Assembly: GCA_040880145.1 (NCBI GenBank)
Contig: JBBDIZ010000006.1
Span: 1-48,515 of the forward strand
Source of the DNA: Simkaniaceae bacterium
GTDB lineage: Bacteria > Chlamydiota > Chlamydiia > Chlamydiales > JAJFMI01
Length of the DNA: 48,515 bases
Direction of reading: 5' to 3'
The translations under genes were made by a program, and so were the position numbers. Shown here piece by piece: positions 207 through 6,429 of this stretch. How positions within the stretch are numbered: position 1 is the stretch's first letter; the number at the start of each line of letters is the position of its first letter. The notes beneath the pieces were generated by a model. The model was not told the origin of the DNA. It did no database searches and saw only the letters and a list, made by a program, of their open reading frames with translations.

Positions 207-237
207 TGGAGGTGGTTGGGCGCGTTCAGAACTTTTG
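207..237 (+). repeat. att-like site copy 1 (tmRNA 3' core plus recombinase-tail sequence)
   Basis: TGGAGGTGGTTGGGCGCGTTCAGAACTTTTG, identical at 2170-2200 and 6247-6277; first 9 bp equal 16050-16058 (tmRNA 3' end). Confidence 0.9.
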
Positions 238-394
238 ATTGGTTAAATATGGGGCTCGAGCGCATCCGAACTCATGTTAAAATTGTCCGGAAAGAGGTGA
301 ATTTGGCGATTTGATATGTTTAACACTATCAAATACTTGTATTTTGATAGGGGTAATGCTATCATAAAGATAGAGATATTGGAGGAGCCTGCTC

Positions 395-862
395 ATGAAA
401 AAGCCTAAACAGTCGGAAAAATCGCTTCTGGAAGGGGTTGCAAGTTCAGGATGCGACTTACGACAGAAACAACGGGGTCTTGAGATAGGCCAGCTCATAG
501 CTCTTATTCGCAGCCAGCTTAGCATGTCACAACGTGCTTTAGCAAAAAGAGCAAAAGTTCCTCAATCAACCATATCGAATATAGAATCAGGACGACTACA
601 ACCCAATGTTTCCACCTTAAAAAAGATCTTAAACTCAATGGAGTGTGATTTACTTATAAGCGTTCTTCCTCGAGAGGAGATTGAGATCATTCGAAGAAAC
701 CAGGCAGAGGCAAAGGCCAAAAGATCGATTCAGTATCTAGAGGGGACCATGAGCCTGGAAGCTCAGAAACCGGACAATGGATTCTTGCATGAGCTAATCA
801 AGGAGAAAATGAAAACTCTATTGGACTCTTCGGGCCCGGAACTATGGGAAGATGACTTGTGA
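395..862 (+). CDS. XRE-family HTH protein, mobile mystery protein A-like
   Basis: Cro/C1 HTH (MSQRALAKRAKVPQSTISNIESG), C-terminal GTMSLEAQ and LW motifs; stop overlaps the next ATG (TGATG). Confidence 0.8.
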   Translation: MKKPKQSEKSLLEGVASSGCDLRQKQRGLEIGQLIALIRSQLSMSQRALAKRAKVPQSTISNIESGRLQPNVSTLKKILNSMECDLLISVLPREEIEIIRRNQAEAKAKRSIQYLEGTMSLEAQKPDNGFLHELIKEKMKTLLDSSGPELWEDDL

Positions 863-996
863 TGTTCTCCTGTCCAGAAGGCGCAACCCCCATTGATGAT
901 ATCAGCGGTCTCAAGCCTTCTTGGGTTAAAACACAGCAAGACTTGAACATAGTCGAGGCTGAGAATATCTCCACTGCAGTTAGCAAATATTTATGA
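862..996 (+). pseudogene. N-terminal fragment of mobile mystery protein B (Fic family), interrupted by IS605-type MITE
   Basis: MFSCPEGATPIDDISGLKPSWVKTQQDLNIVEAENISTAVSKYL*; GATP...L..E.ENI motif; stop created at the IS junction; Fic core missing. Confidence 0.75.
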
Positions 997-1257
997 CTGC
1001 CCGCGGGAAAACCCACCTCTTTAGGGGTGGGATGAGAGCGTATTAAATTTTTGTTTCGTATTTTTGTTTTTTTCCATAATCTGTTAAACTACACTCACCT
1101 TTTTAGGTCTACCACGGGGCTCGTGGGATGTTAAGCCTTTGGAGACTGTGTAAGACTTCCCGTTCCTAATGGAACCGAAAGCTACGGTCTGAGAATTAGG
1201 AACCCTAAACGTAAGAATAGGGAATCCCACTTGCTTTAGCAGTTGGGAGGATGTCAA
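995..1257 (+). mobile_element. Non-autonomous IS200/IS605-type element (263 bp) with left end, probable omegaRNA region and right end; no tnpA/tnpB
   Basis: Follows TTAT; left-end hairpin CCCACCTCTTTAGGGGTGGG; right end GAATCCCACTTGCTTTAGCAGTTGGGAGGATGTCAA; similar left end at 48466, also after TTAT. Confidence 0.85.
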
Positions 1258-1295
1258 TGAGTCTTTTGACGTAAGCAAAAAAAGGATAGTTGAAT

Positions 1296-2105
1296 ATGGC
1301 ACATAGATTGGCCGGCAAGGTGGTACTTATTACTGGAGCAGCTCAAGGTATAGGGAAAGCATGTGCGGAGATATTTGTAAAAGAAGGCGCATTTGTATTT
1401 GTCACAGATATTAATGATGATTTGGGAAAAACAACTGCTTTGGCTATCGGCTCTCAAGCTCAGTATCTCCATTTAGATGTTGAAAATGAAAGCAACTGGG
1501 ATGCAGTGATACAACAAGTAATTAAAGAAAAAAAACATTTAGACATTCTCATCAATAATGCTGGCATTACAGGATTTCAAGAGGGGCTTGGGGTGCAAGA
1601 CCCAGAAAATGCTTCTTTGGATAGCTGGAGAAAAGTGCATGCAGTAAATTCAGATGGTGTTTTTCTTGGTTGTCAGAAAGCAATTCAGCACATGAAAGAG
1701 AGCAAAGGTTCGATAGTAAATATCTCATCTCGGTCAGGTATGGTCGGGATTCCCGGAGCAGCTGCCTATGCAGCTAGTAAAGCGGCTGTTCGTAACCATA
1801 CAAAGACTGTTGCTCTGTATTGTTGTGAGAAAGGGTATAATATTCGTTGTAACTCTATCCATCCCGCTGCTATTTTGACACCTATGTGGGAGCCAATCTT
1901 GGGTAGTGGAGCGGAAAGAGAAGAAAGATTGGCTCTGATTTCCAAGGATATTCCAATGCATAGGCTGGGAACCCCAGAAGACGTAGCATATGCGGCGCTT
2001 TTCTTGGCTTGTGATGAGTCAAAATATATTACTGGTATTGAATTGACTGTAGATGGAGGCATTCTTGCGGGAAGTAGCGCTCCTCCTAAAAAGGAAGTCG
2101 AGTAG
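1296..2105 (+). CDS. SDR family oxidoreductase
   Basis: TGAAQGIG, NNAG, YAASK, DGG motifs; ATG at 1296 preferred over TTG at 1290. Confidence 0.95.
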   Translation: MAHRLAGKVVLITGAAQGIGKACAEIFVKEGAFVFVTDINDDLGKTTALAIGSQAQYLHLDVENESNWDAVIQQVIKEKKHLDILINNAGITGFQEGLGVQDPENASLDSWRKVHAVNSDGVFLGCQKAIQHMKESKGSIVNISSRSGMVGIPGAAAYAASKAAVRNHTKTVALYCCEKGYNIRCNSIHPAAILTPMWEPILGSGAEREERLALISKDIPMHRLGTPEDVAYAALFLACDESKYITGIELTVDGGILAGSSAPPKKEVE

Positions 2106-2169
2106 GGGCAGTCCTAAATGCGTACAAACTAGATTAGTGAAATAAGCGATTTTCCCGAGCCTTTTGTAT

Positions 2170-2200
2170 TGGAGGTGGTTGGGCGCGTTCAGAACTTTTG
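2170..2200 (+). repeat. att-like site copy 2
   Basis: Identical 31-mer; TATTGGAGGTGG (2167-2178) also matches 16047-16058. Confidence 0.9.
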
Positions 2201-4437: not shown

Positions 4438-5498
4438 TCACTACTAATTTTACGTATTCTCTCCGCAACATCTCTAGTATTAACATTGGGAATAGCTAAA
4501 TAGTTTCGGCCATCCAAAGAGATGCGGTGGGTTTGGACTCCTGCCGTAGATACACGTTGTTGAATCTCTTCAATATCAGACGGTTCAGTAACGTCTACTA
4601 ACGCATCTACGTGATAGCCTGGACGAAGAAAAGCTCTGAAGTTGGTTTTAAAACAATCACTTAAAAATTGAGAGTGGGAGTTATAGCCAAGAATCTCTCT
4701 TGTATATCTTGTTTTTTCAGTAATTTCTCTAATAACTTTTTTGCCAAATGGTTTAATATCTTCTTGAGCCAAAAGATACGTGTGATCTACTAAAGCACCT
4801 AAAGTGTCAGTCATGACTGCGTCTATATCATCTATACTTTCGTCATAGCGGCTTGATGAATGCGGGAAGTAATAGAGAACCTCATCCTGCAGATCGTGTT
4901 TCTTAAACTCATCAATTAGTCCTTTTGCGTGGAGTGCACCACAAGCAAAAATCATCCCTTCTTTTTGCTGAGTTCTGAGTTTTAATAAGTTTTGGACCAT
5001 AGTAGTAATTCGATGATCTTCTCGAAGTCTGATACCTGACATTCTTTTTGAAAGATCAACAGAAATCATTTCATTGAAGTCTTCACTGTCTATATCAATC
5101 CCTTTTAAAGACATAAACAGCTCTGTAGCTTTACCAAATATCTCCTTTAGCATGCGAGATGCGGGTAATTGTTTGATCTTTTCAGCCACCTCTACATATC
5201 TTTTACTAGAAGCATACAATCTCAGTAGCTCGGCTAAACTGCGAAAGCTCATCTCACTCAATTTTGTTGTTATCCCTACTTGCTTTAAAAGCTTTTCAGC
5301 CTGTTGTTGGATATCAGAGTCAAGTTCTAATCCCGAATTATGTTGATCGACAATTTCAGCAGGTGATAAATTTTGAGGAGCTTCAAAGCAAAAAGTTTCG
5401 TAACCTCTTCTCTTCAAGTCAGGTAACAAATCTTTTATTACAGATTTAGGAATTGTATCCCAATGACGTTCAAAAACGATAACGATAGGTAATGACAT
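4434..5498 (-). CDS. Hypothetical protein, possibly EreA/ChaN/TIKI-like fold
   Basis: 354-aa ORF; motif order FERH...FCFE...GID...R...M...CGALH. Confidence 0.6.
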   Translation of the reverse strand: MSLPIVIVFERHWDTIPKSVIKDLLPDLKRRGYETFCFEAPQNLSPAEIVDQHNSGLELDSDIQQQAEKLLKQVGITTKLSEMSFRSLAELLRLYASSKRYVEVAEKIKQLPASRMLKEIFGKATELFMSLKGIDIDSEDFNEMISVDLSKRMSGIRLREDHRITTMVQNLLKLRTQQKEGMIFACGALHAKGLIDEFKKHDLQDEVLYYFPHSSSRYDESIDDIDAVMTDTLGALVDHTYLLAQEDIKPFGKKVIREITEKTRYTREILGYNSHSQFLSDCFKTNFRAFLRPGYHVDALVDVTEPSDIEEIQQRVSTAGVQTHRISLDGRNYLAIPNVNTRDVAERIRKISSE

Positions 5499-5574
5499 TT
5501 TTTTTTACAAAATAAATTAGTTTAAGATAATTATATCATAAACAATGGTTTTTTTTGTAACTAATTTAATTAAA

Positions 5575-6198
5575 TGTAGGCCACAAATAGAAATGTCCCT
5601 TTAGGTTAAAAAATAATTTAAACCAATGGGGGCAACGATGGAGGAGGTTATCTGTATGAGCAACAAGGAGTTATCAAGGGTTGAGGTCATGCATAAATTG
5701 CAAAACAAGACCATAAACCAGTCACAAGCAGCTGATATTCTAGGGGTTAGTGTTAGACAAGTCAAACGGCTTTGGAAGGATTATAAGGAAAAAGGGACTA
5801 AAGGATTAATTTCAAAGAAAAGAGGAGGAAAGGGCAATCATCAGTTGGCTGAGGGGGTTAAAAAAAAGGCCATGGAGCTAATTATTGAGAAATACCCAGA
5901 TTTTGGCCCTACTTTTGCTCATGAAAAGCTTGTGGAGGTTCATAATTTTAAAATTTCTGTGGGATCTATCAGAAATATAATGATATCTCATGAAATCTGG
6001 ATTCCCAAAAGAATCAAAAAGAAGAGGGTTTTTCAGATGAGGCAGAGGCGTTTAAGAGAAGGAGAGTTAGTCCAAATGGACGGATCTGAACATGATTGGT
6101 TTGAAGGACGAGGGCCTAAATGCACCTTACTTGTCTATATAGATGATGTAACAAAGCATGAAGGGGTTTTGCGTAATTTTTTGGAGTTAGTTTTTTAG
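5575..6198 (+). mobile_element. Truncated ISNCY/IS481-like transposase with left terminal repeat
   Basis: End TGTAGGCCACAAATAGAAATGTCC at 5575; ORF 5626-6198 has HTH, YPDFGPT and GELVQMDGSEHDWFEGRG..LLVYIDD, then breaks off. Confidence 0.85.
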
Positions 6199-6213
6199 TA
6201 GATTTTGTCTATG

Positions 6214-6244
6214 AAAAAGGCCCGGAAGACCGGGCCTGTTTTTT
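6214..6244 (-). terminator. Intrinsic terminator hairpin abutting att copy 3
   Basis: AGGCCCGG-TCTT-CCGGGCCT followed by a T run on the minus strand, a few bases after CCACCTCCA; T-rich on the plus strand too. Confidence 0.75.
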
Positions 6245-6246
6245 GT

Positions 6247-6277
6247 TGGAGGTGGTTGGGCGCGTTCAGAACTTTTG
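6247..6277 (+). repeat. att-like site copy 3
   Basis: Identical 31-mer; match to copy 1 extends to 36 bp (to 6282). Confidence 0.9.
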
Positions 6278-6429
6278 ATTGGGGAAAGTTTAAGAGCGAA
6301 AGCTCTCAAGTTATTCCTTTTAAGATGGTTATATAATTCCCTCTTCTTAAAATGTGGGGATTTAGCACATTTTCATGTGTTAAAATCGAACATTTGATAC
6401 AATGGGATTATCTCTATAAGGAGTTAAAA

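Follow-up and report, generated by a model that had tools for sequence, protein, structure and literature searches.

A 31-nt sequence is repeated near the tmRNA gene in the genome of a Simkaniaceae bacterium, and each copy opens a short reading frame. The locus raises the question of what these frames encode and how they came to lie there. The window, which is the whole 48,515-nt stretch of DNA that was analysed, contains exactly three copies of the repeat, at 207, 2170 and 6247, all on the plus strand; there were 0 matches across 100 shuffles. The first 9 nt of the repeat, TGGAGGTGG, have a fourth occurrence at 16050, where the minus-strand tmRNA gene has its 3' end, and this shared core is the last 9 nt of that gene. 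Allowing 10 mismatches revealed no additional site in the window. The explanation that we favor, at a probability of roughly 0.85, is that the repeats belong to decayed islands of a serine recombinase whose gene spans attP and whose C-terminus is swapped on integration. The features of the locus are as follows.

78..206, plus strand: flank left of site a, with a weak hairpin (-6.7 kcal/mol)
207..314, plus strand: distal junction a; core TGGAGGTGG at 207-215, conserved element arm at 216-242, orphan tail frame of 35 codons with its stop at 312-314
395..2105, plus strand: cargo of unit a; HTH regulator (395-862) and short-chain dehydrogenase (1290-2105); Pfam
2170..2268, plus strand: inner junction b; core and arm as in a, with two base changes, both among the final six bases of the 36-nt site; tail frame of 32 codons
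2495..6198, no single strand: cargo of unit b; Fic protein (2495-4033), group II intron 3' remnant (about 4080-4438), unknown 354-aa ORF (4434-5498, minus strand), transposase N-terminal fragment (5626-6198); Pfam, Rfam
6247..6336, plus strand: inner junction c; core and arm as in a; tail frame of 29 codons
6352..9070, plus strand: cargo of unit c; HTH-Panacea antitoxin-like gene (6352-7206), a 124-aa ORF overlapping it (7199-7573), RhuM-family gene (8045-9070); Pfam
9993..11965, plus strand: AlbA_2/HATPase_c_4 gene in two ORFs (9993-10295, 10262-11965), directly upstream of the recombinase; Pfam
11962..12468, plus strand: large serine recombinase pseudogene; Pfam Resolvase, E 4.9e-11
12594..15887, no single strand: putative unit d; TetR (minus), SnoaL-like, MarR (minus), EVE (minus), MerR/TipAS; Pfam
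15902..16049, plus strand: flank abutting the tmRNA 3' end, with hairpin CTGGC-TTAC-GCCAG; right end of the tmRNA-proximal unit
16050..16455, minus strand: tmRNA gene; ARAGORN; Rfam RF00023, 140.2 bits

Translation from the core showed frames open for 35, 32 and 29 codons at 207, 2170 and 6247, the copies differing from codon 13 onward only. The three tail peptides given in the first-pass annotation were reproduced exactly, as was WRWRESNSRP followed by a stop at the tmRNA gene, which is read antisense from 16050-16082 in the recombinase frame. The codon before the Trp differs as had been reported, with GGA TGG at 2170 and GAT TGG in the other two copies. The tail of junction c fits the family pattern W-x-K-hydrophobic, and a strong two-way terminator hairpin (6215-6246, -20.5 kcal/mol) precedes this junction. 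Upstream of the sites at 207, 2170 and 6247, the frame was closed within 5, 8 and 15 codons, which makes the tails in the window orphans. No ORF or recombinase in the window reads into the tmRNA core, where the frame is closed 34 codons upstream. Over all window positions, the probability of frames open for at least 23, 20 and 17 codons was 0.34, 0.38 and 0.43 (product 0.057), and the same joint probability was 0.016 from base composition. Another frame at 6247 is open for 49 codons. Taken alone, the open frames of the window are not beyond chance (p about 0.02-0.06), and the significance of the tail frames comes from relatives and not from the window.

The pseudogene at 11962-12468 is the sole copy of the recombinase family found in this genome. 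Its frame contains MKAILLARVSSREQ, as in intact relatives, and the serine in RVSS is presumably the nucleophile; Pfam Resolvase was also found in the homologues P0001, P0008 and P0026. A stop lies at codon 15, the frame ends after about 168 codons, and 3.6 kb separate the truncated gene from ssrA. Missing are the recombinase, zinc-ribbon and coiled-coil parts and the 3' end due to reach the core. Relatives carry PF07508 and PF13408, with long helices at 338-420 in an AlphaFold2 model, and the window copy has none of these. In this genome no recombinase can use the sites, and the system is a fossil. Since the recombinase is a pseudogene, the array is fixed, and the window itself matters less because its recombinase is dead and its array a fossil.

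Of the 301 genomes of the order, 37 (counting G000) carried homologues with 72-91% identity over the N-terminal 150 aa and open frames of 495-582 aa. CcrB was the best NCBIfam match of an intact homologue (E 6.3e-23), but at 81 bits against a cut-off of 900. The RNA gene convergent to the recombinase, in 23 loci scanned, was tmRNA in 7, tRNA-Tyr in 4, tRNA-Leu in 1 and tRNA-Asn in 5, with none in 6. Recombinase ORFs end inside the RNA gene, for example with ...CPTNWRWRESNSRP in L036, L037, L039, L049 and L057. The first-pass annotation had placed attP within the 3' end of the recombinase gene and had proposed a comparison with intact homologues. The placement holds in the relatives, whose ORFs cross the core in frame, but not here, where the gene is a pseudogene. 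Intact relatives run through the core and end in ...NWRWRESNSRP beside tmRNA; a stop well before the core was not seen, and a minority carry WRW(L/R)DAFRTFDW plus a tail. Among the 120 database homologues listed, whose proteins are gene calls, 38 end in antisense tmRNA, 44 in antisense-tRNA-like sequence and 33 otherwise. D(A/G)FRTFDW with a tail was present in 5 of these 120 (P0008, P0026, P0035, P0069 and P0091).

In tandem arrays, the recombinase 3' end reads into the arm at 10 inner junctions, of which three come from the 65 genome sites (L081, L094 and L098) and seven from metagenomes (L099-L105). All 10 genes are remnants or cut by a contig end, with 30-378 codons open, and there is thus no visible maintenance of genes re-completed by a newer island. 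Both island ends lay on one contig in three cases (G226, G162 and G112), with the recombinase at the RNA gene and the arm at the far end. The core variant was the same at both ends of each of these islands (WRW, WEW and WRR).

Constraint on the tail was examined at 54 sites intact to codon 12, including the three of the window, which were reduced to 48 by removing similar tails. Stops in codons 13-23 numbered 7/594 in the tail frame, compared to 43/594 and 32/594 in the other frames (Fisher p 1.2e-7). The tail frame was open through codon 23 at 47 of the 54 sites, compared to 26 and 26 in the other frames (42 of 48 against 22 and 21 in the non-redundant set). The stop rate then rose to 0.113 per codon in codons 24-40; tail length had a median of 29 codons and was 20-35 in 45 of 54. 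Of the 48 non-redundant tails, 43 had T as the middle base of codon 15, whose first and third positions varied freely. This frame-specific depletion of stops bears out the coding constraint that had been proposed. The suggestion that a terminal Ile serves as a degron found no support, since the last residue was hydrophobic in 30 of 48 tails and in 22 of 36 in a control frame. Past codon 15, pN/pS was 0.47 in a subfamily of five and 0.97 in a subfamily of three, and the tail there is probably weakly constrained or neutral. AlphaFold2 confidence was low for the tail (pLDDT <50, residues 493-509 of P0008).

The arm is presumably also a binding half-site of the recombinase. At 5 of 8 junctions, the arm and the recombinase 3' end form an inverted repeat, GTCCAAC ... 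GTTGGAC, around a 12-nt centre; arms starting AGAGAC are without this symmetry. The third-position excess in codons 4-12 was modest (entropy 0.41, 0.44 and 0.61). Because the arm is also a predicted half-site, the conservation of these codons is not attributable to coding alone. From the two C-termini of the relatives and the constraint on the tail frame, we conclude that the gene of a large serine recombinase contains attP at its 3' end. At the level of sequence, the analysis demonstrates the layout, both C-terminal forms among relatives and a coding-type constraint on the tail.

In the proposed mechanism, the 16 kb from 207 to tmRNA would be a decayed tandem array of at least three, and probably four, integrated islands. 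They would have been moved by a CcrB/DsiB-like large serine recombinase aimed at the tmRNA 3' end, related clades of which target tRNA-Tyr, tRNA-Leu and tRNA-Asn. The recombinase gene of this family lies at the island end facing the target gene, with its last 25-30 codons across attP. On the circle, or with a newer island downstream, the ORF would read ...C-P-T-N-W-R-W-(L/R)-D-A-F-R-T-F-D-W-x-K-hydrophobic plus about 8-20 poorly conserved residues. Recombination within TGGAGGTGG would fuse the gene to antisense tmRNA, so that the integrated form would end in ...W-R-W-R-E-S-N-S-R-P. The displaced tail would remain at the far end of the island, and the three repeats of the window would be such tails. 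By analogy with Mx8 IntP/IntX, we infer that the full-length circular form may be integration-proficient and that the integrated form would differ in activity. The first-pass annotation had suggested that the swap could act as a directionality or stability switch.

The flanks and cargo of the array were compared with other genomes. The flank at 78..206 was about 80-82% identical to the flank abutting tmRNA in L019, and equally so to flanks beside distal sites in L064, L070 and L074; before any island arrived, it probably formed the tmRNA-downstream side (B') of the attachment site. The flank at 15902..16049 showed 96% identity over 148 nt to the flank abutting an element arm in a genome of another family (L091). 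This right-end flank abuts tmRNA here and an arm in G104. Over 878 nt, the dehydrogenase segment of unit a matched a G089 cassette, again from another family, at 93% identity. The block at 13691-15890 was 80% identical to one in L027. The boundary of unit d is conjectural, its left junction having presumably been lost along with the 3' two-thirds of the recombinase gene.

The repeats could instead be recombinase binding sites only, the element half of attL, with open frames that are incidental, a tail that was never functional, an overlap that serves compactness and last residues that are dispensable. The inverted repeat of arm and recombinase 3' end is consistent with this, as are the chance-level frames of the window and the near-neutral, low-confidence tail past codon 15. 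The DsiB alignments also diverge in this C-terminal part, the rest of the gene being already full length, in the part of the report by McMurdie et al. 2011 (PMC3146451) used here. However, binding sites do not predict stops that are depleted in a single frame and become sharply more frequent past codon 23, nor narrow lengths, nor an NTN codon, 43-45 nt from the core start, that is free at its first and third positions, and we regard this explanation as unlikely. A still smaller chance, close to negligible, is given to displaced tmRNA 3' fragments left by tyrosine-integrase islands, the usual kind at tRNA and tmRNA genes, and unconnected with the serine recombinase. The tmRNA 3' end is directly repeated downstream of its gene, which is the classic signature of such islands, and the island database Islander, in the portion cited here, describes tyrosine integrases as the only ones known to target tDNAs. 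A tyrosine-integrase tDNA island is already contradicted, as just 9 nt are shared with tmRNA, no T arm can be built from the 22-27 nt that follow, and no tyrosine recombinase domain was found among 44 window ORFs scanned. Moreover, the arm accompanies the serine recombinase whatever the target gene, and recombinase ORFs read into it.

An integron-like array is possible, although we do not favor it. Short recombinase-less cassettes, with a hairpin at one end and the arm at the other, would have been captured singly at tmRNA by a trans-acting recombinase, and the tail frame would be a relic or by-product. Sites far outnumber recombinases: of 401 genomes of the order, 172 carried the arm at up to 3 mismatches (the reversed control gave 0 in every row listed), compared to 37 of 301 with the recombinase. 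Units are small (0.5-10 kb), with one to a few cargo genes. A strong hairpin lies directly upstream at 27 of 65 sites and a recombinase 3' end at 3 of 65; in G089, a 72-nt flank with its hairpin is duplicated along with the site. Junctions consist of a constant 27-nt arm and variable hairpins. Most sites lack a preceding recombinase gene, which the explanation favored above does not account for in its simple form. The right-end flank shared with G104 and the dehydrogenase cassette shared between families also fit cassettes, as do the recombinase-less ssrA islands of Dehalococcoides in the part of McMurdie et al. 2011 (PMC3146451) used here. Against this, no integron integrase, attI or attC was found (no IntI among 44 window ORFs scanned), and the constraint on the tail implies that a recombinase ORF ended in every arm until recently. 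Capture of cassettes concerns array growth and is compatible with the C-terminal swap.

The leading tools for inserting large DNA in one direction are large serine recombinases, whose directionality normally depends on a separate factor. A natural family whose integration rewrites the enzyme C-terminus would be a simple alternative control of directionality. It is doubtful, but conceivable, that the attP-encoded C-terminal peptide is a built-in commitment or directionality device, combined with an integron-like serine-recombinase array at tmRNA. If so, only the circle-encoded enzyme (...DAFRTFDW-x-K-hydrophobic) would integrate efficiently, integration into tmRNA would strip the peptide and lock the island, and the next unit inserted downstream would restore it to the resident enzyme. 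Combined with the recombinase-less units that end in hairpins, such a device would turn tmRNA in environmental Chlamydiae into the site of a cassette array, present in about four in ten sampled genomes. The family targets tRNA and tmRNA genes, whereas serine integrases are not known to do so according to the cited portion of Islander. Given the arm in 172 of 401 genomes and cassettes 93-96% identical between families, it may be a major route of gene exchange in environmental Chlamydiae. Our literature search found no description of the family in Chlamydiae.

Several known systems resemble the proposed swap in part. Among the SCCmec recombinases CcrB/CcrA, CcrB is a large serine recombinase that inserts cassettes into a single-copy housekeeping gene at its 3' end, and these can be tandem or composite; ccr genes are not known to span the att site, and rlmH is targeted instead of an RNA gene. 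Myxophage Mx8 IntP/IntX (Tojo et al. 1996) is reportedly a tyrosine recombinase with a much longer replaced segment, and its target is said to be a tRNA gene region of Myxococcus. In mycobacteriophage BPs, the integrase is a tyrosine recombinase and attP lies inside the repressor gene, so that integration alters the repressor C-terminus and thereby the stability of the product; the gene across attP is thus a repressor and not a recombinase. SSV1-type integrases are tyrosine recombinases, and integration splits their gene in two with no short-tail exchange. The likeness is that the integrase gene extends across attP, as cited in the portion of Islander used here.

The C-terminal swap is not a new idea; it was raised in 2011 for dsiB of Dehalococcoides. 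According to the part of that report used here (McMurdie et al. 2011, PMC3146451), the islands integrate at the ssrA 3' end and line up in tandem downstream of it, in some cases lacking an integration module. DsiB is CcrB-like, of roughly 540 aa, with its gene beside the ssrA-proximal site; the dsiB 3' end always overlaps the site, and its stop falls in ssrA or in the next island. The authors considered that full function of dsiB may require the circle or a neighbouring island that supplies the 3' fragment. Both systems have ssrA 3' direct repeats in tandem downstream, of 9-14 nt here compared to 20 bp there. The conserved motif that adjoins their repeat towards the island, TTCAGRSMGMRKCCA, is compatible by eye at 13 of 15 positions with TTCTGAACGCGTCCA here. 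In both, the recombinase 3' end overlaps the ssrA-proximal att site, here in relatives and not in the window. Both recombinases are nearest CcrB, here by the NCBIfam match and for DsiB by the legend to Figure 2 of that report; the two systems are compared by layout and published description. The present system differs in its host phylum, Chlamydiae, and in related clades that also target tRNA genes. DsiB C-termini are reported as divergent, whereas a conserved peptide with coding-type constraint was found here. The other genes of the DsiB module named in that part of the report (dsiA, recF-like, parB, mom and tRNA-Gly-like) were not seen in the window; no second serine recombinase, ParB or Mom domain was found among 44 window ORFs scanned, and there is no tRNA gene in the window. 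Instead of this six-gene module, seven relatives carry AlbA_2/HATPase_c_4 directly upstream of the recombinase by tblastn (L036, L046, L047, L049, L052, L058 and L065, with L035 being the same place as L065).

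The 31-nt sequence TGGAGGTGGTTGGGCGCGTTCAGAACTTTTG is present in the window in three perfect copies on the + strand, at 207, 2170 and 6247 (0 in 100 shuffles). Its first 9 nt, the core, have one further copy at the 3' end of the tmRNA gene; the remainder belongs to the arm of the element. The two genes concerned are as follows.

11962-12468: recombinase-like gene, Pfam Resolvase, the sole one among 44 window ORFs scanned
16050-16455, - strand: tmRNA gene, 3' end at 16050, Rfam tmRNA 140.2 bits

The frames read from the core stayed open for 35, 32 and 29 codons at 207, 2170 and 6247, respectively, and both the lengths and the peptides were reproduced exactly as the first-pass annotation gave them. 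At the tmRNA core, the recombinase frame read WRWRESNSRP, followed by a stop. The likeness among the three copies ended completely past ~37 nt, and the frame 5' of the core was closed within 5, 8 and 15 codons. For three unrelated stretches, the probability of a further 23, 20 and 17 open codons was 0.016 by base composition and 0.057 over all window positions, and a different frame at 6247 was open for 49 codons. Taken alone, the open frames of the three window repeats are not significant. We also tried the repeats as displaced tmRNA 3' fragments, the relics of a tyrosine-integrase island. Only 9 nt were common with the tmRNA, the part of the repeat past these bases gave no alignment to the tmRNA 3' end, and no T arm was possible. 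Therefore, the repeats are not tRNA-like fragments left by tyrosine-integrase islands.

The window recombinase frame read MKAILLARVSSREQ, met a stop, and ran on to about codon 168, where it ended. This is a pseudogene, shortened by two-thirds, at a distance of 3.6 kb from the tmRNA gene. A second recombinase copy was not found in the source genome (90% complete), in which the tail-swap system is a fossil. Relatives were sought in the order, which by record titles belongs to the Chlamydiae (Parachlamydiales and relatives), every genome being metagenome-assembled. Recombinase homologues were found in 37 of 301 sampled genomes, the source genome counted, and most showed 72-91% identity over the N-terminal 150 residues and open frames of 495-582 codons. 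Intact members had resolvase, recombinase and zinc-ribbon domains. Their nearest curated family was the SCCmec recombinase CcrB, with a score far below the cut-off.

We determined where the intact genes end. ARAGORN on 23 loci placed a convergent tmRNA at 7, tRNA-Tyr at 4, tRNA-Leu at 1, tRNA-Asn at 5 and nothing at 6. At the tmRNA loci, the recombinase ORF crossed TGG AGG TGG in the frame proposed earlier and stopped inside the tmRNA gene, giving a C-terminus of ...Y-K-x-C-P-T-N-W-R-W-R-E-S-N-S-R-P. At the tRNA loci, the C-terminus was an antisense-tRNA peptide, ...W-G-R-L-D-S-N-Q-R-R-P.... Among the 120 homologues listed from a large protein collection, 38 had the antisense tmRNA end, 44 an antisense-tRNA-like end and 5 the core-arm-tail form, and 33 ended otherwise or were truncated. 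The C-termini of the five core-arm-tail proteins are given below.

P0008: ...NWRWLDAFRTLDWKGFSNIPAYSV
P0026: ...NWRWRDAFRTFLWNSMV...
P0035: ...WRWRDAFRTFDWSRVKIPSV...
P0069: ...EWGRLDGFRTFDWRKF...
P0091: ...GWGRLGRFRTFDWGSIAES...

The first-pass annotation had proposed a structure in which attP is part of the serine recombinase gene, at its 3' end, and integration exchanges the C-terminus of the recombinase. Intact genes indeed run through the core, as in the 38 of the 120 listed with the antisense tmRNA end, and the predicted tail form was borne by 5 of the 120. The opposite outcome, in which the homologues end short of the core and none has the tail, did not occur. The structural proposal is supported, with a probability of about 0.85. 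The proposal had extended to a switch. A putative difference in activity, direction or stability between the two C-terminal forms is possible, with the odds somewhat against it, and the swap is unlikely to be a true directionality device.

We then examined coding constraint on the tail. The set comprised 65 distinct arm sites, 64 with flank enough for a longer read. Fifty-four of the 64, the window's three among them, were stop-free to codon 12, and 48 were left once tails more than 70% alike were dropped. In codons 13-23, stops numbered 7/594 in the recombinase frame versus 43 and 32 in the other frames (Fisher p 1.2e-7). Reading was open through codon 23 at 47 of 54 sites in frame versus 26 and 26, and at 42 of 48 non-redundant sites versus 22 and 21. 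From codon 24 onward, stops were commoner in frame, at 0.113 per codon at risk versus 0.069 and 0.060. The total tail length had a median of 29 codons and was 20-35 in 45 of 54; the window's 35, 32 and 29 fall within this range. Of 48 tails, 43 had T as the middle base of codon 15, with almost random bases at the first and third positions; consequently, the residue was L, F, I, V or M (50/55 sites). Codon 14 was K or R at 30 of 55 sites. Neither the frame-specific stop depletion nor the length clustering nor the bias at codons 14 and 15 would be expected for a protein-binding site.

In codons 4-12, entropy was 0.61 at the third position versus 0.41 and 0.44 at the first two. An inverted repeat between the arm and the recombinase 3' end (GTCCAAC, 12 nt, GTTGGAC) was present in 5 of 8 junctions. 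Because the arm is half of this inverted repeat, coding and binding are inseparable in codons 4-12. Past codon 15, constraint appears weak; pN/pS was 0.47 in a subfamily of 5 tails (...S-R-I-K-I-P-S-V-L-T-S-S...) and 0.97 in a subfamily of 3, samples too small to carry weight. The predicted swapped part consists of a 12-residue conserved motif, (L/R)-D-A-F-R-T-F-D-W-x-K-hydrophobic, and a short variable stretch after it. AlphaFold2 of full-length P0008 (66 sequences) gave a mean pLDDT of 79.3 for the body and modelled the tail as a low-confidence helix at 487-496 and then disorder, and it therefore offers no mechanistic lead. Ile is the last residue of each of the three window tails and had been proposed as a possible degron. 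In the recombinase frame, 30 of the 48 tails had a hydrophobic last residue, compared with 22 of 36 for frame +1 and 11 of 30 for frame +2. The degron proposal finds no support here, as hydrophobic ends were equally common in a control frame (30/48 versus 22/36) and cannot be told from AT-rich composition.

Both island ends were found on one contig in three genomes, with the recombinase at the RNA gene, the arm at the opposite end and 9-13 kb between them. Both ends had the same core variant: W-R-W (G226), W-E-W (G162) and W-R-R (G112). The arm, GAC GCR TTC AGA ACT TTT GAT TGG, tracks the recombinase family at any target gene, and the core varies with the target. Of 401 genomes sampled from the order, 172 contained the arm with up to 3 mismatches, often as multiple copies spaced by a few kb; the reversed control gave 0 in every entry listed. 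Some genomes (G132, G013, G394) had 12-18 arm copies on several contigs and both strands, and therefore not every array lies at the tmRNA gene.

We infer that the window holds four tandem units.

207-2169: unit a
2170-6246: unit b
6247 to the recombinase pseudogene: unit c, with the recombinase at its right end and a companion AlbA_2/HATPase_c_4 gene
~12469-16049: unit d, its left junction presumably lost together with the recombinase 3' part

Unit c appears to be a former autonomous element. A search of the window for further degenerate sites, tolerating as many as 10 mismatches against the 36-nt site, found none and therefore gave no left boundary for the inferred unit d. The AlbA_2/HATPase_c_4 gene, 5' of the recombinase (9993-11965), forms two overlapping ORFs here and a single frame in L065, a related locus, and is probably frameshifted in the window. 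At 7 related loci this gene is likewise found with the recombinase, and its product could be an accessory or directionality factor.

The flank preceding site 207 showed ~80% identity to the tmRNA-adjoining flank in locus L019 and to flanks of far-end sites in three other genomes; judged by this likeness, it probably represents the attachment site's original chromosomal side. A strong terminator precedes site 6247. The flank adjoining the tmRNA gene (15902-16049) has a hairpin and no recombinase reading in, and was 96% identical to an arm-adjoining flank in L091, from another family. A short-chain dehydrogenase cassette (1270-2147) showed 93% identity over 878 nt to L067 (G089:C1), from a different family, and lies at the unit's right end in both. 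This likeness points to a recent exchange of a single cassette between distant Chlamydiae. Given the flank and cassette likeness across genomes, units without a recombinase but with a terminator-like right end move between genomes.

At ten junctions, the 3' end of a recombinase gene runs via the core into an arm; three lie in genomes (L081, L094, L098) and seven in metagenome contigs (L099-L105). In L101 and L105, the tmRNA gene lies 7.7 kb beyond the junction in the expected orientation. Such junctions indicate that a newer unit can insert between the resident recombinase gene and the tmRNA gene, an insertion that would restore the full tail to the resident gene. At all ten, the older recombinase genes were remnants or cut by the contig end (30-378 open codons), and the ten gave no sign of upkeep of the re-completed gene.

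The majority of junctions were of a different type. A recombinase 3' end lay 5' of the core at only 3 of the 65 sites; a strong hairpin, usually a two-way terminator, lay a few bases 5' of it at 27 of 65. Simple attP x attB recombination does not explain how recombinase-less units are made and inserted. For the hairpins at inner junctions, we considered the capture of donor flanks downstream of the tmRNA gene, the excision of a recombinase-only unit, the insertion of circles by attL x attR recombination, and homologous recombination between duplicated flanks. In G089, the site occurred in duplicate together with a 72-nt flank that includes the hairpin. In public reads, two runs of one study carried the stretch as contigs breaking at the repeats. 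A contig joint 2199 -> 207 was rejected as evidence of a circle, one side having only 37 letters and the joint lying in the 31-nt repeat. Joints 197 -> 16048 in runs of another study were likewise set aside, as they came from other organisms (90% likeness) and had sides below 30. L021 (reverse strand, ~2650-2740) has an inverted core copy, CACCTCCA, beyond the site's terminator hairpin, and therefore a hairpin stem could reach into the core.

The closest known system is the ssrA-specific genomic islands of Dehalococcoides (PMC3146451). Both form tandem islands downstream of ssrA bounded by ssrA 3'-end repeats, some of them without an integration module. Both have a CcrB-like serine recombinase (in Dehalococcoides DsiB, ~540 residues, a candidate counterpart of the one here) and a conserved motif beside the repeat, of 15 bp in Dehalococcoides (PMC3146451). 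The present system differs in phylum (Chlamydiae), extra tRNA targets, a shorter shared repeat and a different companion gene set. Its C-terminal motif is conserved under coding-type constraint, whereas the 2011 paper saw only divergence (PMC3146451). The idea of a C-terminal swap is at least 11 years old for Dehalococcoides (PMC3146451). A literature search for 'dsiB' found no relevant paper beyond PMC3146451. The tyrosine integrases of Mx8 and SSV are established examples of an integrase gene that spans attP, and serine integrases are described as not known to target tRNA genes (PMC4383910). No description of these elements in Chlamydiae was found within the library searched; the family is widespread, unreported there and directly testable, which is its interest. 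One core-plus-arm match, L014 (NVUU01000083.1), comes from a genome with the label Candidatus Aerophobetes, and the label of P0091 is Candidatus Theseobacter; judged by these labels, the family may extend past Chlamydiae, or the bins may be mixed.

Several further features were observed. Fic-domain proteins recur as unit cargo (window 2495-4033, L009 7406-8557, L010 10752-11708). At 6352-7573, an antitoxin-like gene (HTH plus SocA/Panacea) and a 124-aa ORF without a Pfam match overlap; together they are likely a toxin-antitoxin pair within the island cargo. In run X1, window 1012-1219 and 5754-6155 were on contigs of depth ~167-169 versus ~30 elsewhere, and therefore both are multi-copy in that sample; 5754-6155 is a transposase N-terminal fragment (HTH domains), and 1012-1219 is without annotation. 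A group II intron 3' remnant lies at 4080-4438 and consists of a maturase-like ORF fragment and, after it, an Rfam Intron_gpII match (49.1 bits, 4362-4438). A TPP riboswitch (35843-35944, 55.8 bits) lies 5' of an ABC transporter with an NMT1/THI5-like binding protein.
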